From the IMG/VR virus record IMGVR_UViG_3300029927_000113: DNA of 42,173 bases; one strand, given 5' to 3'. Below the pieces are notes generated by a model. It searched no databases. It was not told the origin of the DNA and was given only the letters and a program-made list of their open reading frames with translations. Positions 5,112 through 35,102 of this stretch are shown here, piece after piece. A program made the translations under genes and the position numbers. Position 1 is the first letter of the stretch. Every line of letters begins with the position of its first letter. Source of the DNA: a virus.

Positions 5112-6331
5112 ATAATATTCGCGTGTTAATTACACCTCTACATTATGATGGCATTTACGGTGATGAAGTTGATGTCACCAAGGATATCGACATAACCTCT
5201 CTGGTTAAGGACAACCTTGGCAAAATTAGCCGCGAGATTGATAACGGTGATTTTGATTTCGGCGTTTTCGTTTTCGGATCGATTACTCTTCGTTGTTATA
5301 ACGACGAAGGTTTTTTCAGTATGCCTGAAGATAGCCGAAGTATTTTCAAATATCGCCGTGATTTAGCACGGGTAAAAATAGTATATGTGTCCACTGTAGA
5401 ATCTGTTTTGTTTGAAGGCATCATAAATGAGGACACGTCCCGCGATGAAGATTTACCGGACGATGACATAAAAACAGGAACCATAAAATTCCGGGTGTTA
5501 TCACTGGATAGTATTCTGCGCCATACCAAGGTTGCTGGTGGTGCTATTGCAACGGGGGTTACAATCTCTACTGCGATTAAACAGATATTAAATACGACAT
5601 ATATTACCAATGTCCTGAATTTTGACCCTTCGAAAATAACAGTAGATACGGACGTTGTTATTGATGATGGTGATTATTTTACAGGTGCAAGTGTTAAGGA
5701 AGCACTCGACGAATTGCTCTTAGCCGCGAATTCTATACTTCTAATTGATGAAGCGCATAATATTATAGTTACGCCACGTGTCGAAAATTCAGCTTTACAT
5801 AAGCTATACGCCCCGCATGATCGACTTGGGCGCGGCAATATAATGCAAATCAAGAATTACAATAATGGCCTTCAGCGATGTTTCTCTGCCGTTAAAATCA
5901 ATGAAACCGAAATAGTAAATCTTGCCGCTGTAGGGGATTATGGCCATAGGCAGAAATCTATTTCACTAGATTTTATAACATCGGTGGTGAGTGAAGAGAT
6001 TATAGCCGGAAATATATTGGCGGAGTTCGATACGCCTAGAAAAGAATGTGTTGTCAAAGTTCCCTTTGATGATATCGCAGGCGTAAAATTACTGGATCAA
6101 GTCGAAATTGATTATCCGCTGCAGGTTCTACCGCCAAAAGGCGAACAATTCATCACGACAGTTAATACGTTTGTTCTAGGGCAGAGCAAAGCCAACCGTG
6201 TCCGTGGATCAATAAGCATATTACCAAAATTAAGGTGGAAGATTATAGGCATATTTCACGGCCTAAAGTATTTCACTACGGAATTAAAAATACGCCATGT
6301 GGGCAAAGAATATGGGCAGGGAGTAATCTAA
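5108..6331 (+). CDS. Tail hub / Tal-position protein
   Basis: 407 aa, 4-nt overlap with the upstream gene. The assignment is positional. Confidence 0.5.
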   Translation: MNNIRVLITPLHYDGIYGDEVDVTKDIDITSLVKDNLGKISREIDNGDFDFGVFVFGSITLRCYNDEGFFSMPEDSRSIFKYRRDLARVKIVYVSTVESVLFEGIINEDTSRDEDLPDDDIKTGTIKFRVLSLDSILRHTKVAGGAIATGVTISTAIKQILNTTYITNVLNFDPSKITVDTDVVIDDGDYFTGASVKEALDELLLAANSILLIDEAHNIIVTPRVENSALHKLYAPHDRLGRGNIMQIKNYNNGLQRCFSAVKINETEIVNLAAVGDYGHRQKSISLDFITSVVSEEIIAGNILAEFDTPRKECVVKVPFDDIAGVKLLDQVEIDYPLQVLPPKGEQFITTVNTFVLGQSKANRVRGSISILPKLRWKIIGIFHGLKYFTTELKIRHVGKEYGQGVI

Positions 6332-6332
6332 C

Positions 6333-8132
6333 GTGACAGATAATACATTATCAAACGTAACCACTGATGTTGTTCCATCAAGCTGGAACCAATATTTTAC
6401 AGCACTTGTAAATGATTTTGTCGGTCGCAATGGGGCAGGCGAGCCAGAAAAAGGAAAAAAGAATGGCACCGCAACCATTCCATGGGGCGAAATACATGCA
6501 GATAAATTATTTCTTGGTGGTTCTTTATTAGACCCAGAAAACCTTGGTTCAAGTGGCGGCGGTAATGGTATCGTTTCAGGGGCAACACGATCCGGCTCAG
6601 AAATGCCGGATTTTTTACGTGCAAATGGTGCTGCAACTTCGTTCAATGTACTTGGCGCAACAACACCCCTTAACTTAAACATTAATTCTGTTGGCGTTAG
6701 TGTGCCGACTGATTTAACCCATGGCTCATTGAATACTGCACCCATAACCAATAATACTGCGCTTATCGATGATGGTGCAATATCTTCAGATAAATACGCC
6801 GGAGAGAACGGATCCACAATTGCCATTGATAACGCAGGGTCTGAGATAACAGATCGCGTTGGTGAGTATGTAGCCTTAAAGCATGGAGCAAGCGAAATTA
6901 TGTTTGCGCGTGTTGCGTCGGTTAGCGGCACCACTGCCATACTTGATAATGTTTTTCGTGGTTTCTTTTTTGATAGCTCCGGCGATCCAATTTTGCGCGA
7001 GGGTTTAAGCAATAATGACACTTTGACACTTTATAATTTGGCGTGGATTTTCTTGCAAAGCGATGGAACGACTTTGGATGTATCCTATACTACTCCAATC
7101 TGGAGTTACAATGAGCCGAGCGCCCCTGTTATTGATGACTATTGGTATGACACCAGCAATCAAAAATGGATGCGTTACGATGGCTCCATATTTGAAGAAA
7201 TTAATCGCACGCATATTGGCTGGGTGGTTATGGATGATACAAATTGTATTGCCTCTCGCTGTCTTGATTTTACAAAGAATTTTAATGAACATATATCAAT
7301 TGAGACACGAGATGTTACCGATACAACAGTACGTTCTAAAGGTCACAACGATAGCGTAAGTGTTTATGGATCATTGATCTCTTTTGGAAATTCTCCTGCA
7401 TATTGGGATATTACGACTGACCTAGAGGTCGGATTGGTTGAAAGTGCAAGTCAGTTTCTTTATCTCTACATCACGCAAAATGGAGAGACTGTATTATCAG
7501 AAACACATCCATATAATCGCGTGGGCGATCTTAATGGCTGGTATCATCCATATCATACTTGGCGTTATGTCGGTGTTGCATATAATGATTCCGGCTCTAA
7601 TTTTTCAATTGCGAACTCTCATAACACAAATACCGTTCGAAGTGATTCCTTCCTATCATCTGCTGAATTTCTGGCAATTCCAAATAAATCTATAAAAGTA
7701 ATTGTTACTGCAGGCGGCGGTGGCGGTGCAAGTTCTGGTGGTCATGGTACAAGCGGATCTAGTTCTACATTTGCCTCTTTCTGCTCTTCGACGGGCGGCA
7801 CTCGTGGCCTAAATTCTGGAACGAACGGCGCTGGCGGCTCAGGCTCTGGCGGCGATATGAATATATCCGGTGGTGATGCAGCAGGCGATGGCAACGGCGG
7901 TGATTCTTATTATGGCGGTGTCTCAGACGCAGGTCAGCATGGAAAATATTATGGCGGTGGTGGCGGTGGGCAAACTACAGCACAGGGCGGTGGTGGTGGT
8001 GGCGGTACTGCAATTAAGAAACTTAATAATATTATAGGCCGTCATAGCATAACTGTTGGTGCGGGTGGCGCAGGTGGTACAGGTGGCGGTAAAGTCGGGC
8101 GCGCAGGCGTTATCGAAGTGGAGTATTTATAA
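6333..8132 (+). CDS. Tail fibre / receptor-binding protein with glycine-rich C-terminal domain
   Basis: 599 aa, GTG start. The C-terminal ~140 aa are dominated by G/S/A runs and end GRAGVIEVEYL. Position after the hub gene. Confidence 0.6.
   Translation: MTDNTLSNVTTDVVPSSWNQYFTALVNDFVGRNGAGEPEKGKKNGTATIPWGEIHADKLFLGGSLLDPENLGSSGGGNGIVSGATRSGSEMPDFLRANGAATSFNVLGATTPLNLNINSVGVSVPTDLTHGSLNTAPITNNTALIDDGAISSDKYAGENGSTIAIDNAGSEITDRVGEYVALKHGASEIMFARVASVSGTTAILDNVFRGFFFDSSGDPILREGLSNNDTLTLYNLAWIFLQSDGTTLDVSYTTPIWSYNEPSAPVIDDYWYDTSNQKWMRYDGSIFEEINRTHIGWVVMDDTNCIASRCLDFTKNFNEHISIETRDVTDTTVRSKGHNDSVSVYGSLISFGNSPAYWDITTDLEVGLVESASQFLYLYITQNGETVLSETHPYNRVGDLNGWYHPYHTWRYVGVAYNDSGSNFSIANSHNTNTVRSDSFLSSAEFLAIPNKSIKVIVTAGGGGGASSGGHGTSGSSSTFASFCSSTGGTRGLNSGTNGAGGSGSGGDMNISGGDAAGDGNGGDSYYGGVSDAGQHGKYYGGGGGGQTTAQGGGGGGGTAIKKLNNIIGRHSITVGAGGAGGTGGGKVGRAGVIEVEYL
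7710..8110 (+). repeat. Low-complexity GGY-rich DNA encoding the glycine-rich fibre tip
   Basis: Repeated ggcggtggtggc-type strings. The protein has no strict G-X-Y periodicity, so it is not collagen-like. Confidence 0.6.
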
Positions 8133-8650
8133 TGTTTGCACGATTAGAAAATAATATAGTCATGGAAGTTATGGATGTTGAAATGCTTCCTGAATTTCAT
8201 CCTGATTTGATTTGGGTAACATGTACAAGTGAAGTCGGCGAGGGGTTCATATATGATAATAGTATCTTCATTGATCCCGAATCCTTAATAACTGCAGAGG
8301 GCTTAATCCCCGCAAAACTACTGGAAATTTCAAGTCTGTATCATGAGAAGATCGGATCCGGCTTTTTATATGATGGAAATCTATATCACCTAGATGCCAC
8401 CGCGCGTTCCAATATGGGCATGATGAAATTAGAAATCGATGCAGGTGCGATTAGCCCACATGGCGGCGCTTGGATTGGATTGAACGGTGTTTACACATTA
8501 TCTGATGTGCAAGTCCTAGCATTAGCAGAGGCCGCACGGTTGGCTTATCGTGGATTACTTTTTGCAAAATCTACCCACGAGATAACAATAAAGGCTCTTA
8601 CTGAAAAAGGTGCTGTTCTATCCTACGATGTTGAAGCGGGGTGGCCATAA
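8132..8650 (+). CDS. Hypothetical tail-associated protein (possible fibre assembly / DUF4376-like)
   Basis: 172 aa, TAATG junction with the fibre gene. The N-terminus MFARLENNIVMEV...GFIYDNSIFIDPES is typical of small fibre-adjacent phage proteins. Tentative. Confidence 0.4.
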   Translation: MFARLENNIVMEVMDVEMLPEFHPDLIWVTCTSEVGEGFIYDNSIFIDPESLITAEGLIPAKLLEISSLYHEKIGSGFLYDGNLYHLDATARSNMGMMKLEIDAGAISPHGGAWIGLNGVYTLSDVQVLALAEAARLAYRGLLFAKSTHEITIKALTEKGAVLSYDVEAGWP

Positions 8651-9018
8651 TGTACGATCAGCCCGATATAAGACCACAGAGCGAAAGTGGTGATCTTTAC
8701 GTTCTTCAGGATGACTTCGTCTACACTGGCAATGGTGAGTTTATTACTGTGCCTGAAGGCTTTAAATATGATGGTGCCTCAACACCTAAATTCCTTTGGT
8801 GGGTGCTCCCTCGCGATGGCATTCATCGCGCCGCCGCATTGATCCATGATTTCATTTATGTCTTCGAAGGCAAGATGCCGGATGGTCAGATCTTCACGCG
8901 AAAGGCTGCAGATAAATTATTCTATAATATCATGGTGGATTACGGTGTTGCTTCATGGCGTGCCAAAATTGCGCATCGTGCTGTTCGTATTGTCGGTTAC
9001 TTTTATTGGAGAGAATAA
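8650..9018 (+). CDS. DUF1353-like protein
   Basis: YDGASTPKFLWW...AALIHDFIY motif. ATG at 8650 overlaps the upstream TAA (TAATG). The track start at 8641 is a GTG alternative. Confidence 0.5.
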   Translation: MYDQPDIRPQSESGDLYVLQDDFVYTGNGEFITVPEGFKYDGASTPKFLWWVLPRDGIHRAAALIHDFIYVFEGKMPDGQIFTRKAADKLFYNIMVDYGVASWRAKIAHRAVRIVGYFYWRE

Positions 9019-9020
9019 GC

Positions 9021-9176
9021 ATGAAATCACATGAAGCGATCAAGATATTACCATCATATCTTGGAACAATTTGGGCCTCTATTACCCTCGATCAAATCGC
9101 CGCCGCGATGACGGCCATATACACTGCCTTACTGATTGGCGGCTGGGTCTATGATAGATTTATAAAGAAGCAATAA
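9021..9176 (+). CDS. Small membrane protein (holin/antiholin candidate)
   Basis: ATG at 9021 after GGAGAG. 51 aa, MKSHEAIKILPSYLGTIWASITLDQIAAAMTAIYTALLIGGWVYDRFIKKQ, with a hydrophobic core. Directly upstream of the endolysin. Confidence 0.45.
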   Translation: MKSHEAIKILPSYLGTIWASITLDQIAAAMTAIYTALLIGGWVYDRFIKKQ

Positions 9177-9177
9177 T

Positions 9178-9672
9178 ATGACAGTAAATCTTAGCCAAAT
9201 CCGTCGATACATAGTTATTCCGACGCTACATAAACTCGGCCTTTATTCTGATGCTGCCGAACGCCTGGTCATGGCAACTGGAATGGCAGAGAGTAATTTT
9301 TCATATATAGATCAAGTCGAACGTGGTGGAGACAAGCATGCTGGTACGGCATTCGGGTTCTTCCAAATGGAAGGTGCAACCCACAATGATTTACATAGAA
9401 ATTTTCTGAAATTTAAACCGGAGTTATTACAAAAACTCTCTATTTTAAGATCACCATATCCAGATGGCGCAATCCAGATGCAAGGCAATATGAATTATGC
9501 CGCGGCAATGTGCCGTATCCATTATCGCAGGATTAAAGCACCGTTACCAAAAGCAAATGATATCGAGGGTTTGGCGCATTATTGGAAAAAATATTACAAC
9601 ACGCATTTAGGCGCAGGAACTATTGACGGGTTTATTCAAAAATCCATGCCTGTTTGGGATTTATATAAGTGA
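9178..9672 (+). CDS. Endolysin, SLT-type lytic transglycosylase-like
   Basis: GMAESNFSY...GTAFGFFQMEGATH resembles the SLT catalytic E-S / GLMQ motifs. Flanked by small membrane proteins and spanins. Confidence 0.6.
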   Translation: MTVNLSQIRRYIVIPTLHKLGLYSDAAERLVMATGMAESNFSYIDQVERGGDKHAGTAFGFFQMEGATHNDLHRNFLKFKPELLQKLSILRSPYPDGAIQMQGNMNYAAAMCRIHYRRIKAPLPKANDIEGLAHYWKKYYNTHLGAGTIDGFIQKSMPVWDLYK

Positions 9673-9678
9673 GGAAAT

Positions 9679-9897
9679 ATGCTTGGGAAAGATCCAGATG
9701 ATAATCTTAAGAACCGCCGCGCGATTGCATTTATCGCGTTTTTTTATGTTCTTATTTGGCCATTCATAATACTTGCCGCACACATGTTTTTTGACCTCGA
9801 CATTGATGCAGCCACTTTGTTTTTGAGCTATGGGGGTGTCTTTGGTGGCTCTCCCATAGTTGCCTATTTTATCGCCGCACAAAAGGATAGCAAATGA
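9679..9897 (+). CDS. Two-TM small membrane protein (holin candidate)
   Basis: 72 aa with two hydrophobic helices (AIAFIAFFYVLIWPFIILAAHMFF and VFGGSPIVAYFIAA) and a charged C-terminus. Confidence 0.5.
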   Translation: MLGKDPDDNLKNRRAIAFIAFFYVLIWPFIILAAHMFFDLDIDAATLFLSYGGVFGGSPIVAYFIAAQKDSK

Positions 9898-10175
9898 TAT
9901 TTTTATTCAAATATAGAAGAGTCCTGATTGGTGCGGCACTTGTAACTATCGTCATTGGCACTGGATTTATATTACGTCACAAAAGCTATAACGCAGGTTA
10001 TAGCAAGCGTGTAGCCGAAGAGGGCGCAGCCATAGTTCGTGCCAGTAATTTAGCACGTGCGCGGATTGTTGAAACGGAAAGAAAATACGATGAAATTATC
10101 AAAGAAATCCAAAACACCGAAAGTACAAATAATTGTGTTGGTGATCATGTGCGCCATGTTCTTGACCGCCTGTAA
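9894..10175 (+). CDS. i-spanin (Rz-like)
   Basis: 93 aa with an N-terminal TM (VLIGAALVTIVIGTGFIL) and a charged helical periplasmic part. ATGA overlap with the upstream gene. A lipoprotein ORF starts within it in another frame. Confidence 0.6.
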   Translation: MIFLFKYRRVLIGAALVTIVIGTGFILRHKSYNAGYSKRVAEEGAAIVRASNLARARIVETERKYDEIIKEIQNTESTNNCVGDHVRHVLDRL

Positions 10176-10323
10176 CGGTAACGTAATCATTGCAAATGAC
10201 CCCCATGATGAATGTGCCCATCCACAAAAACCACCCAAACCCTATGCCGATAAAGCCACCGCGATCTTTGTGGCAGAACAAAGCAAAGCCATAAATAAAT
10301 GCCGCGCATTACTTGGTAAATAA
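10090..10323 (+). CDS. o-spanin (Rz1-like lipoprotein), overlapping architecture
   Basis: MKLSKKSKTPKVQIIVLVIMCAMFLTAC has a signal sequence and lipobox (FLTAC). The mature part is ~50 aa and Pro-rich (HPQKPPKPY). It starts inside the i-spanin gene in a different frame and extends beyond it. Confidence 0.7.
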   Translation: MKLSKKSKTPKVQIIVLVIMCAMFLTACNGNVIIANDPHDECAHPQKPPKPYADKATAIFVAEQSKAINKCRALLGK

Positions 10324-10351
10324 AAACATTAATAAATTAAGGAATTAAAAT

Positions 10352-12586
10352 ATGTTGATGAAAATTGGTGGAATTGGATTAGGCGGTAGGGTGATTGGCT
10401 CATCCGAACCAGCGGGGCAAACCGCGCATATATTTTTAACAATCGGGAACTCCCACAATATTGGTAGACCAACGGCTTCGGGTGATACGTTTGATGCGAA
10501 AGTGTGGGAATGGACGCAGGGTGACGCTTTGGCACAACCCGCCGCCGCGATGCTAGATCATCAAAACGACACGACAACCGATATCAGTCCAGACCTATCT
10601 TTTTCAGCGGATTACATTGCCGCGAACCCCACAATTGACCGCCTTGTATTCGTACCACATGCGCGTGGTAGTACCGGATTTTCGGACAATGCATGGTCTG
10701 CCGATACAGTGCCGAACGATTTGAGTTCTGCCGTTACGCGGTTCAATGCCGCCTATGCACAACTTATCGCGGATGGTTATACGGTTACGGTGGGTGGCGC
10801 GTTCTGGCATGCAAATCGCCCTGATTTCGATAGTAACAGTCATGAACAATATCAAATTGATATTGATGCGATGGCTGCCTATCTCCGCGCAAACCTCACC
10901 GATGGTGCAAATATCAAATTCGCTATCGGCGCGGGAATGACGAAAGTGCAGCTCGATGGTCGCGGCTTATCCAAGGATTTAAACTTCCAAGCAATAGTAG
11001 ACGGTACGCAACATCGTGTGGCCTATACAGGGACGTATGATTGGATAAATTCACCTCGATACGGCAAGACTTACGCAGGTCTTCCAGTGCAAACAACGGA
11101 CGGCGTACACGCTGATCGTTTGGGTGTAATAGAGCAAGGGCATTTGCGTTATGACGCATTGCTACGCGCTCAAGCAAACACCAAACCGTCCGATCCATTC
11201 CAAAGCCTTGCAAGTTGGTCTGATTGGAAAGCGTTCCATGATTTTCGTACTGGAACAGGCTTGGATATGACAGGCAATGGCTTTCATGCAGCTCAAGCCG
11301 ATGCAGTAACAAACACCGCCAATATGAAATACGACACAGTGACAAGAAGCATGGTTTATGACCGTATCGCGGCAGATGTGGCTCGATATTTTCATGCTGG
11401 CGTACAGCTTGGGGCATCTTATACAAAGGCGTTGTTTTTGAGGTTTGATGATCTTAGTGCGACAATTGGTATCTTTCAAAACCACGATGAAGGCGTTCGT
11501 TTTTTCTACACTGTTGGTTCAAATGAAATTCGTGCGTATCACAGCTCAAGCAGTGCTCGTGTTGATATATCAGGCAATGATATAATCTTAGGGAAGTGGC
11601 ATAGCTTGGTGGTCACGTATGATGAACCAACCACCACTATGAAGATTTACCTTGATGGTGTCCTCAAAGGAACAAACGCCGCCGTGGCCGCTCATCCAGC
11701 CGTTGTGAATGAAGCGATCGGGGCGCAAAACTTGGTAGGGCTTCGTGGTTTTCGTGGGGCGATGATGTACGCCGCGCATTCCTATAGTGCAATGGATCAA
11801 ACAGCTATAACCGCACTCAACACCGTATCACAAAACCTTGTCACACCGTTTGTAGTACAGACACCCGATGAAATACCTGCTTTATTTTCGTGGAGAAACC
11901 CACGTATTGACATCTCTGTAACGCGCGATGGTGGAGAATTGGTATCTAATGAGCAAGACACGTTTGGGTCGTTGGATGCACTCCAATCGGACGAACCGCA
12001 TAAACCTTTATATGTTCCTGCGAGTAATTATGTTCAATATGGCGGTGGTGCAGGCAATCAAGAGTTCCTTGAAATGGGCGCGGTTGCTTTCGGTTCGGAT
12101 GATTTCTCAATCTCTATATGGGGTTACTCTGACGTACAAACTACATTTGTCCAAAAATGGATGAACCTTAGTGATGGCACAACTTCCTCTTTGGTGACTA
12201 TAGGCACGCATAACGCTACACCTTCTATCAGATGTTCTGTAAGGGATGCCTTAGGCAATGTTGTGACAACTTCGCTAAATACCCTTTTAACAGGGAAATG
12301 GTATCACGTGGTGATGAGTGTAGATCGTGCAAATAATCTCATTAAATATTACGTTGATGGTCTACTCAAAGTGACCGTAGATATTTCCGCATTAACCGAT
12401 GTCATAAACATGGATGGTGGCTCATTCGTTAACCTATTAGGTAAAGAGACCAAAGCCGATGGCACGTATTCCAGAGCATTCCAAGGAAGACTTGGGGATG
12501 ATCATATCTACAAAGGCCGCGCATTAACTGCGGATGATGTGACCAATATTTTCAATGATGGAACGGCGGATTATAGTAATCCTTAA
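10352..12586 (+). CDS. Large SGNH/SASA-type carbohydrate esterase-like protein with two LamG (concanavalin-like) domains
   Basis: AAGGA RBS. The N-terminus IFLTIGNSHNIG matches the GQSNM-type block I, and TTDGVHADRLG matches the DxxH block V. Two repeats of the LamG_3-like signature: GKWHSLVVTYDEPTTTMKIYLDGVL and GKWYHVVMSVDRANNLIKYYVDGLL. Confidence 0.6.
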   Translation: MLMKIGGIGLGGRVIGSSEPAGQTAHIFLTIGNSHNIGRPTASGDTFDAKVWEWTQGDALAQPAAAMLDHQNDTTTDISPDLSFSADYIAANPTIDRLVFVPHARGSTGFSDNAWSADTVPNDLSSAVTRFNAAYAQLIADGYTVTVGGAFWHANRPDFDSNSHEQYQIDIDAMAAYLRANLTDGANIKFAIGAGMTKVQLDGRGLSKDLNFQAIVDGTQHRVAYTGTYDWINSPRYGKTYAGLPVQTTDGVHADRLGVIEQGHLRYDALLRAQANTKPSDPFQSLASWSDWKAFHDFRTGTGLDMTGNGFHAAQADAVTNTANMKYDTVTRSMVYDRIAADVARYFHAGVQLGASYTKALFLRFDDLSATIGIFQNHDEGVRFFYTVGSNEIRAYHSSSSARVDISGNDIILGKWHSLVVTYDEPTTTMKIYLDGVLKGTNAAVAAHPAVVNEAIGAQNLVGLRGFRGAMMYAAHSYSAMDQTAITALNTVSQNLVTPFVVQTPDEIPALFSWRNPRIDISVTRDGGELVSNEQDTFGSLDALQSDEPHKPLYVPASNYVQYGGGAGNQEFLEMGAVAFGSDDFSISIWGYSDVQTTFVQKWMNLSDGTTSSLVTIGTHNATPSIRCSVRDALGNVVTTSLNTLLTGKWYHVVMSVDRANNLIKYYVDGLLKVTVDISALTDVINMDGGSFVNLLGKETKADGTYSRAFQGRLGDDHIYKGRALTADDVTNIFNDGTADYSNP

Positions 12587-19979: not shown

Positions 19980-20133
19980 TATAAAAAGTCGCATATACGG
20001 ACTCTACGGATTGAGATATTGAAAATATACCGATTACCTGCGGTGTTTAGGGTGTGGGTAGCTGTGCAATTTTATAAAGGGCAGGCGACTTTATGTTCAC
20101 AGACACTATAGAAACCTCTATGCGGTTAATAAA

Positions 20134-20316
20134 TCAATCTGGAAATAGAGAACGGATCAAGCGATAGGGTGATATTTTAATACATACCCGCCTAATATTT
20201 TTACATGCTGCTATAATTATATTACATAAAACAATGAGAAAGATTTTGTTAAATGCGTGCTTTGCAACATCATCAGTCACCGTGCACGTAATATTTTTAA
20301 ACTCAAATTTATTCAT
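20134..20316 (-). CDS. Small hydrophobic hypothetical protein (60 aa)
   Basis: Strong RBS AAAGGAG 5-6 nt upstream of the ATG. MNKFEFKNITCTVTDDVAKHAFNKIFLIVLCNIIIAACKNIRRVCIKISPYRLIRSLFPD. Very AT-rich and isolated in a ~650-bp gene-poor stretch. Confidence 0.35.
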   Translation of the reverse strand: MNKFEFKNITCTVTDDVAKHAFNKIFLIVLCNIIIAACKNIRRVCIKISPYRLIRSLFPD

Positions 20317-20578
20317 TAATACTCCTTTTTGGGCATAGTTTTCCTGTTTGCAAAAACCCCGTTGCTGAGGCTATTACATAGTTTTAATTTCCTATATCAA
20401 AATTCTGATATGGCTAGAATCTACATGATCGTACAAAATATGTCAAACAAGATCGTCGTGTAAACAATTGAAAATAAAGGATTTTTTTATAAACATTTAG
20501 TTTATACCCACACTGTAAGTTAGTGTAGGTGAGTGTTTGCCGAGGTGAAAATTTTACAAATTTACAAAATTATGGCAC

Positions 20579-20598
20579 AAAAAAAACACCCGAAGGTG
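20579..20598 (-). terminator. Short hairpin (CACC-UUCG-GGUG) + U8 after the GNAT gene
   Basis: The minus strand reads CCACCTTCGGGTGTTTTTTTT immediately downstream of the stop at 20621. The stem is only 4 bp. Confidence 0.35.
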
Positions 20599-20620
20599 GT
20601 TTGTGGAGAGTGGGAAGGGT

Positions 20621-21169
20621 TTATTCAGGGATGTAATCGTCTGATTTATCCTCTTCACCTATTACTTTCATGCCGAGTCGCTCATAGAAGGGGACGGAAT
20701 TTACTTTATTTGTATCGCGGGTGTTGAGGTAGACTATTTCATTCTCTTTGAACAGCTCGGCCAGAACAGAAGACACATAGAAGTTACCGAGGCCTTTACC
20801 GCAATGTTCAGGAAACAATCCGACTTTATAAATCTCTGCGGCCACCGCGCCTGATTTTGTATTAAAGTGTCCAGACATGCCCTCACTTTCCAATGCTTGA
20901 CAAAAACCAACAGTTTCATCGCCTTTTTTAAAAAGAAAGAGGCTTGATCTTGTTTTTTCAATCCGGTCTTTTAAATCATTGAGATAGTTAGGGTCATAAT
21001 AAACGGTTCTTTTATCCCACTTTGAATCTTCGCCTACTTTTAAAATGTAATCTAAAAGCATGTTGATATCGGGCTTTTCTCGCACAATACTGAGTTGGCC
21101 GCTTTCGTCCTCAGTTATTCCAGAGAAATCATCTTTAGTCGCGGATATATGTGTAAGCTTAAAGGTCAT
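20621..21169 (-). CDS. GNAT-family N-acetyltransferase
   Basis: VGFCQALE...AAEIYKVGLFPEHCGKGLGNFYVSSVLAELF contains the acetyl-CoA-binding Q/RxxGxG-type loop (HCGKGLG). Likely starts at MTFKLTH, whose ATG overlaps the upstream TGA (ATGA at 21166-21169). Confidence 0.75.
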   Translation of the reverse strand: MTFKLTHISATKDDFSGITEDESGQLSIVREKPDINMLLDYILKVGEDSKWDKRTVYYDPNYLNDLKDRIEKTRSSLFLFKKGDETVGFCQALESEGMSGHFNTKSGAVAAEIYKVGLFPEHCGKGLGNFYVSSVLAELFKENEIVYLNTRDTNKVNSVPFYERLGMKVIGEEDKSDDYIPE

Positions 21170-21801
21170 GCCAAGCTGTCCCAAACAATATTGAATATAA
21201 CAGTTTGTGCGGCAGCCATGCTCTCTCTTGAAATTATTTCAATTCTCAATTCATCACCAAATGTAATGAACGCGACATTCTCACCGAATATATATGTTGA
21301 TACGTTCTTAAAATCTCTGCGCGGCATCCATTTATACTGCGCAAAACTATCTGCTATAGGTTCACCGCCGCGTTCGGCAATAATTCTCATGTTTATATTA
21401 TCTTTAATGTCGCCCATACGTAGTGCGTGATGTTTATACCAATCTTCTCCAAGGTGTTCTATCCATAGAGCCGTCGAGCCGTTTAGGATAAATAAGTCTC
21501 CGCCTCTGCTGCTGGCCACTTCGTATACGCTATCCATCAACGCACGAAAACCATAACGACCATATAGCTTCGTTATTTCATCGCGTGGTTTAAACTCCAT
21601 ACCGCCATACTCTGTCTTGCGTATGCCTTTACTCTCAAAGAGTTTACTTATTTTATCCATAGACGCTTTAGCCAATGATGACTTTCCACTGTCATTATTA
21701 CTTAAATTTGATCGAGAAATCCCTGTTGCGTCTGAAAGGTCTGAAAAATTCATGCGAAGTAGGGCGATGCCCGCTGCAATTTGCTCTTTTGAGTAATCCA
21801 T
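21166..21801 (-). CDS. HTH (XRE-like) N-terminal domain protein with ~150-aa unknown C-terminal domain
   Basis: IAAGIALLRMNFSDLSDATGISRSNLSNNDSG is an HTH. The C-terminal domain is not recognised. Translationally coupled to the GNAT gene. Confidence 0.7.
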   Translation of the reverse strand: MDYSKEQIAAGIALLRMNFSDLSDATGISRSNLSNNDSGKSSLAKASMDKISKLFESKGIRKTEYGGMEFKPRDEITKLYGRYGFRALMDSVYEVASSRGGDLFILNGSTALWIEHLGEDWYKHHALRMGDIKDNINMRIIAERGGEPIADSFAQYKWMPRRDFKNVSTYIFGENVAFITFGDELRIEIISRESMAAAQTVIFNIVWDSLA

Positions 21802-21828
21802 TATTCTTCATCCATTATTTTCTGAGTT

Positions 21829-21857
21829 ATTTATACTCCAAAAGATAATTAAGTCAA
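21829..21857 (-). promoter_or_regulatory. Sigma70-like promoter for the HTH-GNAT operon
   Basis: The minus strand reads TTGACT (21857-21852), a 17-nt spacer, then TATAAA (21834-21829). Confidence 0.45.
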
Positions 21858-21939
21858 TGCATATTTTATCACATATAATACATTTATAATATACAATGGT
21901 ATATATTTTACTGATATTAATAAAATTTGCACTATTTCC

Positions 21940-21969
21940 TTGACATAATCCCGTCACATTCACTATACA
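21940..21969 (+). promoter_or_regulatory. Sigma70-like promoter for the small + strand ORF
   Basis: TTGACA (21940-21945), an 18-nt spacer, then TATACA (21964-21969). Confidence 0.35.
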
Positions 21970-22070
21970 TAGCTCATCGCATAACTGATTATGCAAAACA
22001 CTAGAAGACTTTAAGTGTGTTGGAGGAGGTCTGAAAATCTCCATAAAAACAATAAAAACAGGAGATTATT

Positions 22071-22244
22071 ATGAACCAGAATAAAAAGATAAATATTGAT
22101 AAGAGTGATTTGGATTTAGAGGCATTGCAGCGTGTATATGATTTTTTTCACAAAATGGCACTTTATCGCCGCGCTGCGAATGACTCTGAAATTGCAGCAA
22201 TAGAAAAATTAAAGGAAGAATACACGGATATCATAAGCGATTAA
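22071..22244 (+). CDS. Small hypothetical protein (57 aa), divergent from the HTH-GNAT operon
   Basis: AGGAG RBS at 22060-22064. MNQNKKINIDKSDLDLEALQRVYDFFHKMALYRRAANDSEIAAIEKLKEEYTDIISD. Followed by a strong terminator. Below the track cut-off. Confidence 0.5.
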   Translation: MNQNKKINIDKSDLDLEALQRVYDFFHKMALYRRAANDSEIAAIEKLKEEYTDIISD

Positions 22245-22291
22245 TAGACTTTTTAGAAGCAAAGTCCCACAGCGATGCTTTTAAACTACTG

Positions 22292-22340
22292 CCGTTCTGA
22301 TCGTCACCCCCACACACATTGGCGATCAGGGCGGTTTTTT
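22292..22340 (+). terminator. Rho-independent terminator
   Basis: 12-bp stem CCGTTCTGATCG / CGATCAGGGCGG (two G-U pairs), a 19-nt loop, then T6. Confidence 0.6.
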
Positions 22341-23004
22341 ATTTCCAATTACAGGTTTTTTTCAGTGGAATTAATGCTTCGCTTAAGCCTGTTGTATCAA
22401 AGATAGCAGTAATGGGTGACTCGGAATAAGGCGTAACTTGTGCCAATAATTTATTATATTTTTCCATTTGCTTAATGAACGCAATGGTTCCAGTTGGGTG
22501 AAATGTTGCTTTAGAATCCGTGGATACCGACCATCTTTTAGTACGTGCTTTCTCATTACCAATTCTAGTGAGCACATCAACATTACGCCCCAGAAAATCA
22601 TGCCATGTTAACATTAGTTCTGTCTTGTTACTCTTACAGCGGATTAGCATGGTTACAATGTCGTCACGTCTGGACTTACCACTATCAGCTTTTAAGTGAA
22701 GATAAACCGATTGTGAATCGTCAATTGGATTACTCTTTTCGTTAACGCTCCATTTGCTAGGCTTTGGTGGCTCCATTCCAACTAGAGCTTGCCAGTTATC
22801 ATCTTTTTGTATCGCGTTTACTGTGGTGTTAACTGTTTGGGGTTTATCTAGTTTATTATCCTCGGCAAGAGTATCGTAACATTCCAGTCTTTCTAGATCA
22901 CCTTCTAGGATTGCGCATGTGGCAACTGAATGTTTTAATTCTGCGGCATTTACGGGCAGGGAGGCCAACATTGCAATGAAAGTGATTGCATAATTTTTTT
23001 TCAT
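22339..23004 (-). CDS. Secreted/periplasmic protein with four conserved-looking Cys (moron downstream of the repressor gene)
   Basis: Signal peptide MKKNYAITFIAMLASLPVNA|AE. ATCAILEGDLERLECYD motif, and a C-terminal ...LIPLKKTCNWK. Lies 13 nt downstream of the cI-like gene on the same strand. Confidence 0.7.
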   Translation of the reverse strand: MKKNYAITFIAMLASLPVNAAELKHSVATCAILEGDLERLECYDTLAEDNKLDKPQTVNTTVNAIQKDDNWQALVGMEPPKPSKWSVNEKSNPIDDSQSVYLHLKADSGKSRRDDIVTMLIRCKSNKTELMLTWHDFLGRNVDVLTRIGNEKARTKRWSVSTDSKATFHPTGTIAFIKQMEKYNKLLAQVTPYSESPITAIFDTTGLSEALIPLKKTCNWK

Positions 23005-23017
23005 AAGACTTATAGCT

Positions 23018-23389
23018 CTATTTTGATTTCAGTTTATTCTTACGGCTCTGTATGTTTTTAAGATCTCGTGTGAAATTTGCGAGTTCTTCTTTGTAAACAT
23101 CATCAAAACCTTGCCACGCACTTTGAATTTGTTCAAACGCTTCATCGACTTCACTATTTTTTCTCATATTACCATTGCCTGAAATAAGCCATTTCTCTTC
23201 AACATCAATAAACTCACAGAATTTATTCTGATATTTCTGAGGCATTGGCCTATCTATTTCGTACGCTGTATAGGTATTTCTTGCGACGCCAATATAGTCA
23301 GCAACTTGCTTTTGATCAAAGCTAGTGCTGGCTCTGGCTTTCTTGGTACGAGCTATATATTCAATTTGGCGATCCGATAAACTATTCAT
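23018..23389 (-). CDS. CI-like repressor (HTH only, no S24 peptidase domain)
   Basis: FDQKQVADYIGVARNTYTAYEIDRPMP is an HTH, followed by EEKWLISGNG. 123 aa. Divergent from the Cro-like gene. Confidence 0.7.
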   Translation of the reverse strand: MNSLSDRQIEYIARTKKARASTSFDQKQVADYIGVARNTYTAYEIDRPMPQKYQNKFCEFIDVEEKWLISGNGNMRKNSEVDEAFEQIQSAWQGFDDVYKEELANFTRDLKNIQSRKNKLKSK

Positions 23390-23422: not shown

Positions 23423-23749
23423 ATGTCGCATTTTGCGGTTGACTTATGTCTCGTAATGAGACATTTATTAAGAATGAAGAACATATGCCAATGGTCAAAA
23501 ATAAAGCAAATAGCAGTTTTAGCGAACATTCCTGAGTCGACATACCGTACATGGAAGAACAGAGGCAATATTCCACCTGTAAAGCGTGACCTGATCTTAT
23601 ACACCGCGAAAAAATACAACATTGATCTATCCGACGATAATGTGCGCAATCCAAATTCTCCAGATCATAATCCCATAGATACCGTATCCGGTCATCCAGA
23701 ACAATTCCAAAAACTTCTACACACTCAAACACAGGAGCAAACCTTATGA
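23423..23749 (+). CDS. Cro/CI-type HTH regulator
   Basis: IAVLANIPESTYRTWKNRGNIPPVKRDLILY resembles the phage CI-repressor HTH type. If the promoter call at 23439-23467 is right, the real start is the internal ATG at 23477 (MKNICQW), giving a near-leaderless mRNA. Confidence 0.6.
   Translation: MSHFAVDLCLVMRHLLRMKNICQWSKIKQIAVLANIPESTYRTWKNRGNIPPVKRDLILYTAKKYNIDLSDDNVRNPNSPDHNPIDTVSGHPEQFQKLLHTQTQEQTL
23439..23467 (+). promoter_or_regulatory. Candidate rightward early promoter with palindromic operator (PR/OR-like)
   Basis: TTGACT-TATGTCTCGTAATGAGA-CATTTA. The operator ATGTCTC-GTAAT-GAGACAT has a perfect 7-bp dyad. Confidence 0.45.
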
Positions 23750-24210
23750 CCGCCCGAATATTCACCGCGGAACAATACAACGCCTTAAAAATGGCCACAC
23801 GTAAACTGCACAAGAAGTCAGGTGGATTAGAGAGCGCCGCATCCTTAACCCGCGTACAGCATGCGCAGTTAGGTGTATATCAAAATGTAAACGTAACCGA
23901 TCAATTTGCACCAATAGATGTTATCGCGGATCTGGAACACGAAACAGGAACGCCATTTGTTACCGAAGCCTTATGCGCCATAAATAATGGCTATTACACA
24001 CCATTCACAAAATCAACAGCCGCCCCGATCTTCGCCGCTAACTTGGCAATATCGGGTAAAGAGTTTGCCGATGTTATGTCACGCGCGGCCATATCATTGG
24101 AAGATGGAATAATTACGAAGGGTGAAGCTGTAGCAATTATCAATGAAGTTAACGAGGCTATACAGGCTCTCGCCCAGCTTAAATCTGGCTTAGAGGGGCA
24201 ATTCGCTTAA
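23746..24210 (+). CDS. CII-like regulatory protein (tentative)
   Basis: 154 aa, ATGA-coupled to the Cro-like gene. Position and general similarity to CP76-type CII proteins. Weak. Confidence 0.45.
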   Translation: MTARIFTAEQYNALKMATRKLHKKSGGLESAASLTRVQHAQLGVYQNVNVTDQFAPIDVIADLEHETGTPFVTEALCAINNGYYTPFTKSTAAPIFAANLAISGKEFADVMSRAAISLEDGIITKGEAVAIINEVNEAIQALAQLKSGLEGQFA

Positions 24211-24653
24211 TGGATAAAATCCTTATTACATTTAAAACAATGAAAGTCCTGAAAGCTCTCATTGACCATAAAGAACAGGGCAATCACATAGTCCGTATTT
24301 ATGATCTTAGAAAAGAAATGGGAAGTAATATTCACGACGCAGTATATATCCTTCAATCTCATGGCTGTATTTGTATTACAAAGGATAAAGGATTTACTTT
24401 TGCCGAAGTTCTAATCGATAGAAATTGCATTGATCGCTTTATTGCAGGATACGATAAAAATTATAATTCGAGTAATCTATCTCCTAAAATGAAAAAATCA
24501 CCGCCTGTAAAAATATGCCCTTATCACGGGCGCAAATATGAAGATGTTCCCAAAGGCACATTCGATGCCGCCATTCACAACAATGTAACACCAAGCAAAC
24601 AATATCGCACATCCCACCATGGAAGTTCAGCGGGGATGATTAATGATGCTTGA
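24210..24653 (+). CDS. Hypothetical early protein (possible winged-helix N-terminus)
   Basis: 147 aa, TAATG junction with the upstream gene. Confidence 0.55.
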   Translation: MDKILITFKTMKVLKALIDHKEQGNHIVRIYDLRKEMGSNIHDAVYILQSHGCICITKDKGFTFAEVLIDRNCIDRFIAGYDKNYNSSNLSPKMKKSPPVKICPYHGRKYEDVPKGTFDAAIHNNVTPSKQYRTSHHGSSAGMINDA

Positions 24654-25284
24654 GTTTTGCGCACAACATAATGTTGATCCCGCTATTTTCTCCCAATTAT
24701 TTCTAAATAAAGCCACCAGCCTTGTTAATGAACTTGAGGCATTGGAAACACCAACATGGGCAGCGGACGCGGTACTGGAAGAAGAAATTTGCACCCGCCG
24801 TGTCATTGACCCGAATTGCGGCACAGGTGTATTGGCAGAGGCCGCACGTCGAAAAGGGTATGAGGTCTACGCCAATGACATATTCAATTGGGGGTATGAG
24901 CATCAATCATATACTTATGATTTTCTATCAGAGCAGGGCGCACATCATCTTGGCGGTCTTGTGAGTGGCAGTACAGTATTCTTAAACCCACCGTTCAAAT
25001 TGTCCTGCGAGTTTCTTTTACAATGCCGATTACTTGGCGCGCGTAAGGTTATCTTGTTTCAAAATATTACATGGATGACTTCAAAAACACGTCGTGAATT
25101 TTGGAAAAATAACCCACCAACAAGAACATATATTTTTGCAGAGCGTGCAACCACTTGGCGCTTTGATGTGCCGGAACATAAACGCATCGGCACAACTTCA
25201 AAGACCTTCGCATTCTTTGTATGGGATGGATGGGACAACCCCGCCGCCCCAACCAGCCACCTTTTGTACAAGGGAGGTGCGTGA
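24643..25284 (+). CDS. N6-adenine DNA methyltransferase-like (small, orphan)
   Basis: VIDPNCGTGVLAEAA is AdoMet motif I and VFLNPPFK is motif IV (NPPF). Confidence 0.65.
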   Translation: MMLEFCAQHNVDPAIFSQLFLNKATSLVNELEALETPTWAADAVLEEEICTRRVIDPNCGTGVLAEAARRKGYEVYANDIFNWGYEHQSYTYDFLSEQGAHHLGGLVSGSTVFLNPPFKLSCEFLLQCRLLGARKVILFQNITWMTSKTRREFWKNNPPTRTYIFAERATTWRFDVPEHKRIGTTSKTFAFFVWDGWDNPAAPTSHLLYKGGA

Positions 25285-26648
25285 TGTATCAAATGTGCCT
25301 TGATAATGAATTAGTAATTGATAATTTTGCAGGTGGCGGTGGCGCGTCTGCAGGGATTGAAGCAGCATTAAACCGTCCGGTTAATATTGCAATTAATCAT
25401 GACCCAGAGGCGGTGGCGCTTCACAAGATAAATCACCCGCACACGCACCATTATTGCGAAGATGTATTTAGTATAAATCAACGTGAACTTGTTAAGGGTC
25501 GCCCAGTTGGACTTGTTTGGTTGTCGCCTGATTGCACCCACCATTCAAGAGCAAAGGGCGGTAGGCCAGTTAAGAAGAATATACGTGGTTTGGCATGGGT
25601 AGCACTACGTTGGGCAACATTACCAGCACCATCAAAACCGCGTGTAATTATGCTTGAGAACGTAGAAGAGTTTAAGGGATGGGGGCCGCTAGTAAATGGA
25701 AGGCCTTGTAAAGAGCGCAAAGGAAAGACGTTTAATCAATTCTGCGATGCTTTACGCGCACAGGGTTATGTCGTTGAATATCGCTCTCTTACAGCCTCAG
25801 ATTATGGTGCACCCACAAGACGCACAAGATTATTCCTTATCGCACGTAGCGATGGTCAGCCAATTGTATGGCCTAACCCTACACATGGTAAAAAGGGTTC
25901 TGGATTATTACCGGAAAAAATAGCCGGTGACTGCATAGATTGGTCGGTGCCTGGTCAAAGCATCTTTGGGCGCAAGCGTCCACTTGTTGAAAAAACAATG
26001 ATCCGTATAGCGCGTGGTATGCAGAAGTTTATAATTGATGATGACAATCCGTATATTGTTCCGCACCAAGGACACCACACGGCATCATTCATCAATGAGC
26101 ACGCAAATTCATCTAGCCAGAGAATAATTGATATTCAAAAACCACTACCTACAATTTGTGCGCAGGTTAAGGGCGGTCACTTCTCTTTGGTGTCAGCATA
26201 TTTAATACGGTATTTTGGTAACGGTTTTGCAAACTCAATCAAGCAACCAATACCAACAATCATGGCTGGCGGTGGTGGTAAAAGTGCCTTAGTCACTGCA
26301 TTTTTGGTGAAATATTATGGGGCAGATAAACACGGTCAGGCTTTAAACGTTCCGCTGGATACCATCACCACAAATGATCGTTTCGGCTTAGTCACGGTCA
26401 AAGGTATTGATTACCAAATTGTAGATATAACTCTACGAATGCTTTTATCAAGAGAGCTATATACAGCTCAAGGATTCACTAAAGATTACAAGATTGATTT
26501 TGAATATAACGGGCGACCATTAAGCAAAACGTCGAAGGTGCGTATGTGTGGCAATTCAGTTAGCCCCTATATGTCATACGTCCTAACTGACGCTAACTTC
26601 ATGCAATCATCCTTATTTGTTGATCAAAGATTTAGGCGGGTGTCATGA
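25284..26648 (+). CDS. DNA C5-cytosine methyltransferase
   Basis: DNFAGGGGAS (motif I), LSPDCTHHS (PC motif), MLENVEEF (ENV), TRRTRLFLIA (motif VIII), MCGNSVSP (motif X). ATG at 25284 follows AGGGAGG and overlaps the upstream TGA. Confidence 0.9.
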   Translation: MYQMCLDNELVIDNFAGGGGASAGIEAALNRPVNIAINHDPEAVALHKINHPHTHHYCEDVFSINQRELVKGRPVGLVWLSPDCTHHSRAKGGRPVKKNIRGLAWVALRWATLPAPSKPRVIMLENVEEFKGWGPLVNGRPCKERKGKTFNQFCDALRAQGYVVEYRSLTASDYGAPTRRTRLFLIARSDGQPIVWPNPTHGKKGSGLLPEKIAGDCIDWSVPGQSIFGRKRPLVEKTMIRIARGMQKFIIDDDNPYIVPHQGHHTASFINEHANSSSQRIIDIQKPLPTICAQVKGGHFSLVSAYLIRYFGNGFANSIKQPIPTIMAGGGGKSALVTAFLVKYYGADKHGQALNVPLDTITTNDRFGLVTVKGIDYQIVDITLRMLLSRELYTAQGFTKDYKIDFEYNGRPLSKTSKVRMCGNSVSPYMSYVLTDANFMQSSLFVDQRFRRVS

Positions 26649-34565: not shown

Positions 34566-35102
34566 GTGCAGGGAGCATTGTTCAACAAGGATGATAGTCA
34601 AAGCTGGGTTTCTCAGTCGGCTTTTGCCAAAAATATTGGTGTATCTGCGCAGGCAGTACGCAAGGCAATTGATAGTAATAGGTTTGATCAAGACGCTTTA
34701 CGCTCTGAAAAAGCAAAGTCTGGAAAAACCAAATATAGAATAAATATAATTGAAGGTGCGAAGCAGTGGGAAGAAAACCGCGGTGGATCCGTTAGCACAC
34801 CCCTTGCTGACAAAACACACAATGATGCCAAAAAGCGAGAGCAGACAGCAAACGCAAATATTGCAGAGTTAAAATTTCAGGAGCTGGACGGACAGTTGAT
34901 CCGAGCGGCTGATGTTAAGGAACATTTTTCAAGAATAGCAGCAACAATACGTGATGCGTTTTTGAATGAACCAGTGAAGTTGGCTCCTGTAATTTCGAAT
35001 GTTGACGATGTAAATGAAATTGAACAAATACTAAAAGAAAAGTTCACTGAAATATTGAAGGAATTATCTGATGCCGGTCTTGGCGGAACGCTTTTTAGAT
35101 GA
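34566..35102 (+). CDS. terS: Terminase small subunit (Nu1-like, N-terminal HTH)
   Basis: GTG start 7 nt after TAAGGA. The HTH is SQSAFAKNIGVSAQAVRKAIDSNRF. Immediately upstream of and overlapping the GpA-type terminase gene. Confidence 0.7.
   Translation: MQGALFNKDDSQSWVSQSAFAKNIGVSAQAVRKAIDSNRFDQDALRSEKAKSGKTKYRINIIEGAKQWEENRGGSVSTPLADKTHNDAKKREQTANANIAELKFQELDGQLIRAADVKEHFSRIAATIRDAFLNEPVKLAPVISNVDDVNEIEQILKEKFTEILKELSDAGLGGTLFR

Follow-up and report, generated by a model that had tools for sequence, protein, structure and literature searches.

The viral record IMGVR_UViG_3300029927_000113 of IMG/VR carries two overlapping genes on its minus strand, one for a 211-residue helix-turn-helix (HTH) protein, here called the partner, and one for a 182-residue acetyltransferase of the GNAT family. 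The whole stretch analyzed, referred to below as the window, is 42,173 nucleotides (nt) long and is a temperate phage genome or prophage. An initial annotation, made from the sequence of the window, had presented the pair as a candidate atypical toxin-antitoxin or defense module, with a transferase regulated by its HTH neighbor as an equally valid alternative. The features of the locus are as follows:

21166..21801, minus strand: partner gene, an open reading frame (ORF) of 211 codons with an ATG start, encoding an XRE-type HTH and a C-terminal domain with a predicted phospholipase D (PLD)-like fold
20621..21169, minus strand: GNAT N-acetyltransferase gene, 182 amino acids from the ATG, matched by Pfam PF00583 and belonging to a rare, distinct clade
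21166-21169, minus strand: stop/start overlap ATGA, in which the partner TGA overlaps the GNAT ATG
21628..21801, minus strand: HTH domain of the partner, residues 1 to ~58, four helices, from the secondary structure of an AlphaFold2 (AF2) model and a profile match
21169..21579, minus strand: C-terminal domain of the partner, residues 75-211, predicted PLD-like alpha/beta fold, with no HKD motif and no Pfam model
21830..21857, minus strand: promoter-like site TTGACT, 16 nt, TATAAA, at consensus level only, as read from the sequence
21858..21931: imperfect inverted repeat in the divergent promoter region, a weak operator candidate
20576..20605, minus strand: weak terminator-like hairpin and U-run 3' of the GNAT gene
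22071..22244, plus strand: divergent ORF of 57 amino acids with a Shine-Dalgarno sequence, outside the conserved module

Both minus-strand ORFs and the overlap at 21166-21169 lie where they had been described, and to judge from the ATGA overlap the two genes are translationally coupled. An upstream TTG is an alternative start for the GNAT ORF and would give a product of 187 amino acids. The GC content of the pair is ~0.37, compared with 0.41-0.44 on both flanks. The description of a self-contained, translationally coupled two-gene module has been borne out by the comparisons below, and the module is also horizontally mobile.

Conservation of the pair was assessed by our own ORF calling and hidden Markov model searches across all fetched loci, which carry L numbers here. 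Six contigs with GNAT homologues all have a gene for 212-222 amino acids directly upstream, and these upstream genes align over their full length to the window 211-residue protein at 35-42% identity. The partner directly precedes the GNAT in 15 of 15 distinct pairs, and the order is invariant. Among the 13 junctions that could be read, eight have a 4-nt ATGA or GTGA overlap, one has a 1-nt overlap, and four have gaps of 0-5 nt; in a further pair, L025b, the gap is 35 nt. The neighborhood on which the initial annotation had staked its module is thus kept in every homologous locus examined.

The pair is rare. Pattern scans yielded 6 loci in 185,579 species genomes, all of them metagenome-assembled genomes (MAGs), 1 in IMG/VR, and 3 in JGI metagenomes; the pattern-scan loci L026, L029, and L030 were rejected as weak matches, being generic GNATs without a partner. 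No match was obtained by tblastn of partner and GNAT against 50,697 GenBank phage records, by tblastn of the partner against 72,556 plasmids, or by megablast of the locus against GenBank phage records. The family has been seen solely in metagenome-derived sequences, where the pair is carried by two unrelated temperate phages, by integrative mobile elements, and by chromosomes of Bacteroidota and Alphaproteobacteria. In the second phage, the IMG/VR contig L027, repressor-like genes immediately precede the pair and the integrase follows it. In Flavipsychrobacter, the integrative mobile elements have it near AbiEi or Fic, resolvase, excisionase-like HTH_17, and TraG/relaxase genes, and at one further locus it adjoins transposases and an RHS gene. 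Other copies are embedded in normal chromosomal contexts: in L003 the pair is flanked by fabA-like and dus/suf genes, in L008 and L017 it follows Tad-pilus genes, and in L018-L020, from marine Alphaproteobacteria, it adjoins dnaA-rpsT-fpg.

This organization and distribution can be read as that of a toxin-antitoxin (TA) or abortive-infection module, in which the GNAT would arrest growth and the HTH/PLD protein would act as its antitoxin by binding and/or repression. The partner might also sense infection, and the pair might help a prophage to exclude superinfecting phages or to maintain itself. We rate this reading as somewhat less likely than the one favored below. A regulator-first bicistron with a 4-nt overlap is found in type II TA operons as well, and the strict pairing, the rarity and patchiness across phyla, the GC content below that of the flanks, and the occurrence in two unrelated phages within the lysogeny region, and in mobile elements with AbiEi/Fic and resolvase genes nearby, are all consistent with it. 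The copies at conserved positions among housekeeping genes of marine Alphaproteobacteria argue against it. Translational coupling and strict pairing are also what would be expected of a single enzyme/regulatory complex, in which the PLD-fold domain would present a phosphate-bearing ligand or nucleic acid, or the GNAT would adjust DNA binding by the partner through acetylation. Control of a partner by its enzyme has a precedent in TacT, which acetylates TacA.

The partner combines a familiar DNA-binding domain with one that is new to the domain databases. The XRE-like N-terminal HTH proposed earlier is sub-threshold in the window copy, for which Pfam HTH_26 gives E 0.01 and 16.6 bits against a cut-off of 22, and is clear at family level: HTH_3 is found in five of seven family members (best E 2.5e-7), and the closest HTH to the partner profile is that of the restriction-modification (R-M) controller protein C.Kpn2I (4yba; E 1.5e-5). 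As the initial annotation had also held, this DNA-binding protein is not of the ribbon-helix-helix (RHH) or DUF1778 type; neither the partner nor six relatives match those families at E <= 1. In a 60-member alignment the window HTH deviates at the near-invariant residues R9A, A11G, R12I, Q19F, and E37D, which marks the window copy as an atypical member of the partner family. The second domain, at residues ~60-211, had been called unrecognized and indeed has no match in Pfam, NCBIfam, PHROGs, or PADLOC.

A single-sequence search with the 211-residue protein returned 0 matches, although more than 200 relatives exist. This result is an artifact of the word-indexed search, because the 90% cluster representative is a 74-residue fragment. 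A profile built from seven partners, recovered via their GNAT neighbors, matched 221 proteins, nearly all of 206-235 residues. When the C-terminal domain by itself was used in a HMMER scan of 1.84 billion representatives, 284 proteins matched at E <= 1e-3; nearly all have 205-235 residues, with the domain at ~75-210, and they form about 280 clusters at 50% identity. One 1861-residue match, P0229, was discarded as a repeat-protein artifact. By these profile searches the C-terminal domain is a family without a Pfam model that is essentially confined to this one architecture.

Structural modeling gives the C-terminal domain a fold. The AF2 model of the partner has a mean predicted local distance difference test (pLDDT) score of 93.8 and no disordered segment, and consists of a four-helix XRE-type HTH, a short beta hairpin, and an alpha/beta domain at residues ~75-211. 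A partner so fully structured counts against the TA reading. In Foldseek searches the best match to the C-terminal domain is the archaeal regulator TrmBL2 (5bpi, E 6e-6), and further matches are the PLD-family proteins NucT (6ehi, template modeling (TM) score by target 0.58-0.61), Nuc (1byr), Zucchini, PLD3, and phosphatidylserine synthase; as a group these PLD-protein matches have TM scores by target of 0.55-0.61 and E values of 1e-4 to 1e-3. Poxvirus F13-like proteins match the same domain in a Foldseek search of BFVD. The model thus assigns a PLD-like alpha/beta fold to the C-terminal domain. The domain would be non-catalytic, because the HxK(x)4D motif is present in none of 60 aligned family members and the conserved H125 and R128 sit in a predicted helix rather than on the catalytic strand. 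With the HKD motif missing, an active PLD nuclease was ruled out.

These features bear on two alternatives. D90, Y93, N107, H125, and R128 are the conserved polar residues of the PLD-fold domain and could form a binding site, as a ligand-presenting complex of partner and enzyme would need. The closeness of the HTH to an R-M controller protein, the fold-level matches to the nucleases NucT, Nuc, and Zucchini, and the occurrence of methyltransferases among the enzymes encoded downstream of other partners (see below) could suggest an R-M-like system, with the partner as a sequence-directed PLD-family nuclease and the downstream transferase as the protective modifier. We consider such a system highly improbable. 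The missing HxK(x)4D motif and the helical position of the conserved His and Arg speak against a nuclease, and the methyltransferases in question are small-molecule or generic class-I enzymes or EgtD-like, rather than members of DNA methyltransferase families. Moreover, we know of no GNAT that modifies DNA.

The acetyltransferase is intact but unremarkable, and belongs to a rare clade. Pfam Acetyltransf_1 (PF00583) matches the 182-residue protein with E 1e-8, above the family cut-off, and the acetyl-CoA loop to which the initial annotation had pointed is kept as GKGLG in most relatives, with degenerate versions in long chromosomal proteins such as that of L018. The family also conserves E112 on beta4, the GxG loop, and a YLNTRDTNxVNSVPFY motif. 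Only 13 homologues, from 90% down to 32% identity, were found in 5.8e9 protein clusters. The AF2 model (pLDDT 87.6) has the complete canonical fold in the order beta1 (2-11), extra strand (26-31), alpha1, alpha2, beta2-4, alpha3, beta5, alpha4, and beta6. The N-terminal extension of ~90 residues that had been thought to set this protein apart disappears in the model: residues 1-75 are modeled as the normal beta1-alpha1-alpha2 with one extra strand, and the supposed extension would be the poorly conserved N-terminal half of the fold.

In sequence, the protein comes nearest to the structures of an aminoglycoside acetyltransferase (6bff, E 9e-6), RimI, PaiA, VipF, Naa50, and polyamine acetyltransferases; the nearest by fold are the tandem-GNAT proteins VipF and MshD and a glucosamine N-acetyltransferase. 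Foldseek gave 129 matches in the PDB at E <= 1e-3, and those listed are GNAT-fold acyltransferases. Relatedness to toxins was judged from the best 60 of 66 PDB profile matches (E <= 1) and from the top 50 Foldseek matches. TacT, AtaT, KacT, ItaT, and PacT are absent from the best 60 profile matches, and the same five are absent from the top 50 fold matches. The suggested link to toxins of the TacT/AtaT/KacT type is therefore not supported by either ranking, and assignment of the GNAT to the TacT type was rejected.

Charge is also atypical of such toxins. A basic surface is expected of GNAT toxins that bind tRNA, from which an acidic enzyme differs. The isoelectric point (pI) of the window protein is 4.9, and pI values in the family range from 4.7 to 9.3, so that a basic surface, as expected for tRNA binding, is not conserved. 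The claim of a defense module likewise found no counterpart among known models: the partner, the GNAT, and the 57-residue ORF have no match in PADLOC-DB 2.0 at E <= 1, by which a known defense system was ruled out. The lack of specific similarity to TacT, AtaT, KacT, ItaT, or PacT among the matches listed, the acidic pI, and the PADLOC result all count against a toxin.

The most informative result of the analysis is that partner and cargo are interchangeable. L001 is a fragment of a phage related to that of the window, as evidenced by 92% nt identity between its positions 2908-3186 and window 10419-10697. Its GNAT gene (1897-2445) matches window 21169-20621 with 86.7% nt identity over exactly the ORF (90% at the amino acid level), whereas the two partners are only 39% identical and the flanks do not align. 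Moreover, the L001 pair adjoins a homologue of a 744-residue gene that lies at 10352-12586 in the window. A 90%-identical GNAT with a 39%-identical partner and non-aligning flanks suggests that the partner was swapped by recombination and that the cassette sits elsewhere in the L001 phage. The sequence comparison thus indicates gene-precise mosaicism and relocation of the cassette. The opposite combination is seen in L008 and L017, in which the partners are 79% identical and the GNATs 46%. Across all pairs, partner and GNAT identities are weakly correlated (Spearman 0.35).

A survey from the partner side shows that the cargo need not be a GNAT. Six look-ups were made, for 9 partner-first neighborhoods in all out of ~280 partner clusters. 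The downstream gene is of the GNAT family in three of the six look-ups (L015, L017, and L018), with the GNAT-like cargo of L017 and L018 recognized by hhalign at probabilities of 99.9 and 99.4. The other three encode a class-I S-adenosylmethionine (SAM) methyltransferase (L031), a Methyltransf_25 protein (L032), and a 349-residue protein with weak formyltransferase similarity (L033). In L025, an alphaproteobacterial MAG, three partner paralogues lie within 9 kb (3717-12430), flanked by rho and mnmE; the genes that follow them encode GNATs in two cases and a homologue of EgtD-like histidine N-alpha-methyltransferases in the third.

The exchanges occur at fixed positions. At the Tad-pilus site, partners that are 53-57% identical are followed by GNAT-like (L017), Methyltransf_25 (L032), or formyltransferase-like (L033) cargo. 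At the dnaA-rpsT-fpg site, partners with the same range of identity precede GNAT-like cargo in L018 and a class-I SAM methyltransferase in L031. Partner and cargo recombine freely, and the exchange includes cargo of unrelated folds. As a separate observation, the two syntenic alphaproteobacterial sites (partners 53-79% identical, L008 included) form a cargo-replacement hotspot.

These results weaken the TA or defense reading. Methyltransferases of the EgtD-like and class-I kinds and a formyltransferase-like protein also follow members of the partner family, and no toxins of these types are known. In addition, a 90%-identical GNAT tolerates a 39%-identical partner. Some aspects of the shuffling are nonetheless in favor of the TA reading: the mix-and-match of partner and cargo resembles TA evolution, and paralogue expansion in L025 and cargo turnover at fixed sites would also fit. 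Promiscuous antitoxin domains are a further precedent for it. In an extended version, which is unlikely, a new superfamily of acetyl-, methyl-, and formyl-transferase toxins is restrained by the XRE/PLD-fold protein, acting as a sensor of infection or a promiscuous antitoxin; such toxins would block the amino groups of a common essential target, e.g. aminoacyl-tRNA, and would be deployed by temperate phages and integrative elements for abortive infection or exclusion. The single enzyme/regulatory complex loses ground as well, and we judge it quite improbable. Cargo enzymes of unrelated fold replace the GNAT behind orthologous partners, and the partner and GNAT phylogenies are discordant, both of which are hard to reconcile with an obligatory, co-evolved complex.

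We favor, with a probability of roughly 40%, a transcription factor that controls an interchangeable transferase and is carried with it as a phage moron or conversion cassette. This reading is preferred because unrelated transferases follow the partner family at syntenic sites and lineages of partner and cargo are shuffled. One globular domain is unlikely to occlude the active sites of GNAT, Rossmann-type, and EgtD-type enzymes, because their folds are so different. The new evidence thus favors what the initial annotation had offered as its alternative, a transferase regulated by its HTH neighbor. The compact, fully folded partner, whose best structural match, TrmBL2, is itself a regulator with an HTH and a PLD-like fold, is consistent with this reading, as are the affinities of the GNAT with aminoglycoside, polyamine, RimI, and PaiA-type N-acetyltransferases and its pI of 4.9. 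The invariant pairing, the restriction of the C-terminal domain to a single architecture, the enrichment of inverted repeats upstream of partner genes, and the earlier view of Xre-GNAT pairs as chromosome-enriched, probable resistance modules (PMC2701414) also count in its favor.

In the mechanism that we propose, a temperate phage would carry, within its lysogeny region, a self-contained mobile two-gene operon as a moron. Its first gene would encode a transcription factor of the one-component type, with an XRE HTH and a non-catalytic PLD-fold domain that may serve in dimerization and/or signal binding, by analogy with the C-terminal domain of the TrmB family. The factor would bind inverted repeats at its own promoter and thereby control the operon. 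Once the operon is switched on, the GNAT, produced via the stop/start coupling, would acetylate an amine-bearing target, which is more likely to be a small molecule or protein than aminoacyl-tRNA, and the enzyme itself would not be toxic. In the family at large, the partner would be a generic carrier and regulator placed before interchangeable transferases, including GNATs, SAM methyltransferases, and a formyltransferase-like enzyme.

Several observations weigh against the proposal of a regulated transferase. The pair lies in the immunity regions of two unrelated temperate phages (the window and L027), in mobile elements near AbiEi/Fic, and beside transposases and an RHS gene, and such locations typically hold TA and defense genes. 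Rapid cargo turnover at fixed sites and the three paralogues in L025 resemble conflict systems. At no locus is the pair found together with genes for transporters or a pathway. From the tight ATGA coupling, one would expect the two proteins in matched amounts and perhaps in a physical complex. Finally, the changes in the window HTH (Q19F and R12I), together with an upstream repeat at chance level, leave autoregulation unproven for the window copy.

Pairs of an Xre protein and a GNAT have a history in the TA literature. Makarova et al. (2009; PMC2701414) listed Xre-GNAT pairs as TA-like, chromosome-enriched, and probably resistance-related; for this reason the general kind counts as known since 2009, whereas the present family is uncharacterized. 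PacTA of P. aeruginosa is a validated GNAT toxin with a two-domain, HTH-type antitoxin, PacA, in which an arabinose-binding domain is followed by a C-terminal HTH (PMC9561280). In the GNAT-Xre class, the Xre-HTH protein carries an additional domain beside the GNAT (PMC9561280). PacTA is the closest experimental support for the TA reading, as a validated GNAT toxin whose HTH-type antitoxin bears an extra domain (PMC9561280), and the present pair shares with GNAT-Xre modules (TADB class, PacTA) an Xre-HTH protein with an extra domain next to a GNAT. It differs from PacTA in that its partner has an N-terminal HTH and a PLD fold, and PacT (PDB 1YRE) is not among the sequence or fold matches listed for the GNAT. 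The function of the GNAT-Xre class is debated between toxin and resistance, and the name is an architectural label rather than that of a homologous family. To our knowledge, the Xre-GNAT pairs of TA catalogues have one characterized member, which is unrelated to this family.

The pair resembles the GNAT-RHH type II TA systems TacAT, AtaRT, KacAT, and ItaRT in gene order (DNA-binding gene first, GNAT second), in coupling, often with overlap, in the acetyl-CoA loop of the GNAT, and in carriage by mobile elements. The partner here has an XRE HTH and a 135-residue PLD-fold domain, whereas theirs are RHH/DUF1778 proteins; the GNAT is acidic and, among the matches listed, no closer to those toxins than to other GNATs.

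Two other comparisons are instructive. TrmB-family proteins (TrmB and TrmBL2) also have a DNA-binding domain followed by a PLD-like-fold domain for oligomerization or effector binding. Their DNA-binding domain is a winged HTH, however, and here it is an XRE HTH; the resemblance is at the level of the fold, and neither the winged HTH PF01978 nor the TrmB domain PF11495 gives a Pfam match at E <= 1 in the partner family. Moreover, no transferase is coupled to TrmB proteins, which act in archaea as sugar regulators or as chromatin proteins. PanA/DUF4065 antitoxins and the WYL-type regulators BrxR/CapW are promiscuous upstream domains that precede unrelated effectors. They share with the present family the principle of one upstream family with interchangeable downstream enzymes on mobile elements, but there is no homology, and the cargo here, as sampled, consists of acetyl-, methyl-, and possibly formyl-transferases.

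We found no description of this family or of its partner domain in the literature. The comparisons define a concrete, rare family in which a new HTH-associated domain, with a PLD-like fold in the models and no Pfam model, always precedes an interchangeable group-transfer enzyme; its carriers are phages, integrative elements, and chromosomes of marine Alphaproteobacteria. Should the enzymes be toxic, the family would add a new antitoxin domain and, paired with it, methyl- and formyl-transferase toxin types, of which we know no earlier description. If they are protective, the family would represent both a lysogenic-conversion cassette of a new type and a new class of one-component regulators governing enzymes that modify xenobiotics. 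In both cases, the exchange of partner and cargo with gene precision makes the family well suited to clean studies of modular exchange.

The control region of the window is less distinctive than was first thought. Both hexamers of the near-consensus promoter described initially are present (TTGACT at 21857-21852 and TATAAA at 21835-21830), but their spacer is 16 nt instead of 17, a consensus promoter scanner does not list the site, and promoter-like sites in this AT-rich stretch are not enriched (8, compared with 7.4 +/- 2.2 in shuffles). The terminator-like element fared similarly. A hairpin with a 4-bp stem, UUCG loop, and eight-U run does exist, but its energy of -7.7 kcal/mol is no better than that of shuffles (z -0.4), and it was rejected as a distinct signal. 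An Rfam scan of 20000-22600 matched no family.

Upstream repeats are more telling in the family than in the window. The arms at 21858-21869 and 21920-21931 are complementary at 11 of 12 bases, which does not exceed chance, and the longest perfect inverted repeat upstream of the window partner is 6 nt; as a window operator, the 11/12 repeat was set aside. Across the family, perfect inverted repeats with arms of >= 8 nt occur upstream of the partner gene at 5 of 19 loci, compared with 1.0 +/- 1.0 in shuffles; none of 300 shuffles reached five, although one of the five repeats is probably a terminator. For example, L003 has a perfect 28-bp palindrome with 12-nt arms, L007 a doubled GTCACGAnnTCGTGAC, L008, L017, L032, and L033 two GTTAAC-type sites each, and L006, L015, and L028 a repeated TTACTCA(G/A)T. 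Such repeats are candidate operators, specific to each locus. Separately, L006, L007, L015, L025, L027, and L028 have a conserved CCCCACACA(G)TT upstream of the partner, within a few bases of the start codon of the divergent gene. This element is common to loci from different phyla, and the divergent genes are not obviously homologous.

The divergent 57-residue ORF is probably a real small gene, judging by a strong Shine-Dalgarno sequence (AGGAG, 7 nt before the ATG) and an inverted repeat 3' of the ORF (arms 22292-22306 and 22320-22334) followed by a T-run. The possibility, raised initially, that it is a third component was dismissed: the small divergent ORFs at six other loci show no homology to it, and mostly none to each other.

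Other genes of the window provide the phage setting:

15721-16764: integrase (PHROG 1, E 1.5e-52)
23018-23389, minus strand: repressor-like HTH gene
23746-24210: CII-like activator
24643-26648, plus strand: two adjacent, overlapping DNA methyltransferase genes in the rightward early operon (PHROG 799 and PHROG 116)
35071-36966, plus strand: large terminase

The pair is co-oriented with the repressor gene and located between it and the leftward early genes and integrase. The initial placement among lysogeny-region genes therefore stands, and the unrelated phage L027 has an equivalent arrangement. The position of the pair and its GC composition fit a moron acquired in the lysogeny region. A DNA-level search of GenBank phage records found none close to the window phage, which thus lacks a close relative among those records. 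The best GenBank phage relatives of its large terminase are Wolbachia WO prophages, at 45-47% identity.

Two further observations concern the immunity region. Directly 3' of the repressor-like gene, at 22339-23004 on the minus strand, is a gene for a 221-residue VasI-like protein, which matches Pfam PF11319 (type VI secretion system VasI, E 1.3e-14) and PHROG 1848 (E 6e-31). Its position is typical of lysogeny-expressed morons, and a gene resembling a type VI secretion accessory is unusual in a phage immunity region. Beyond the 3' end of the GNAT gene is a perfect palindrome, ACACTGTAAGTTAGTGT, at 20510-20526, in a region where the number of palindromes does not exceed chance. Downstream of it, a promoter-like site with 10 of 12 consensus positions (TTGACA, 17 nt, TAGATT) lies at 20446-20418 on the minus strand, and palindrome and site together form a candidate for the early-left promoter and operator region of the phage.

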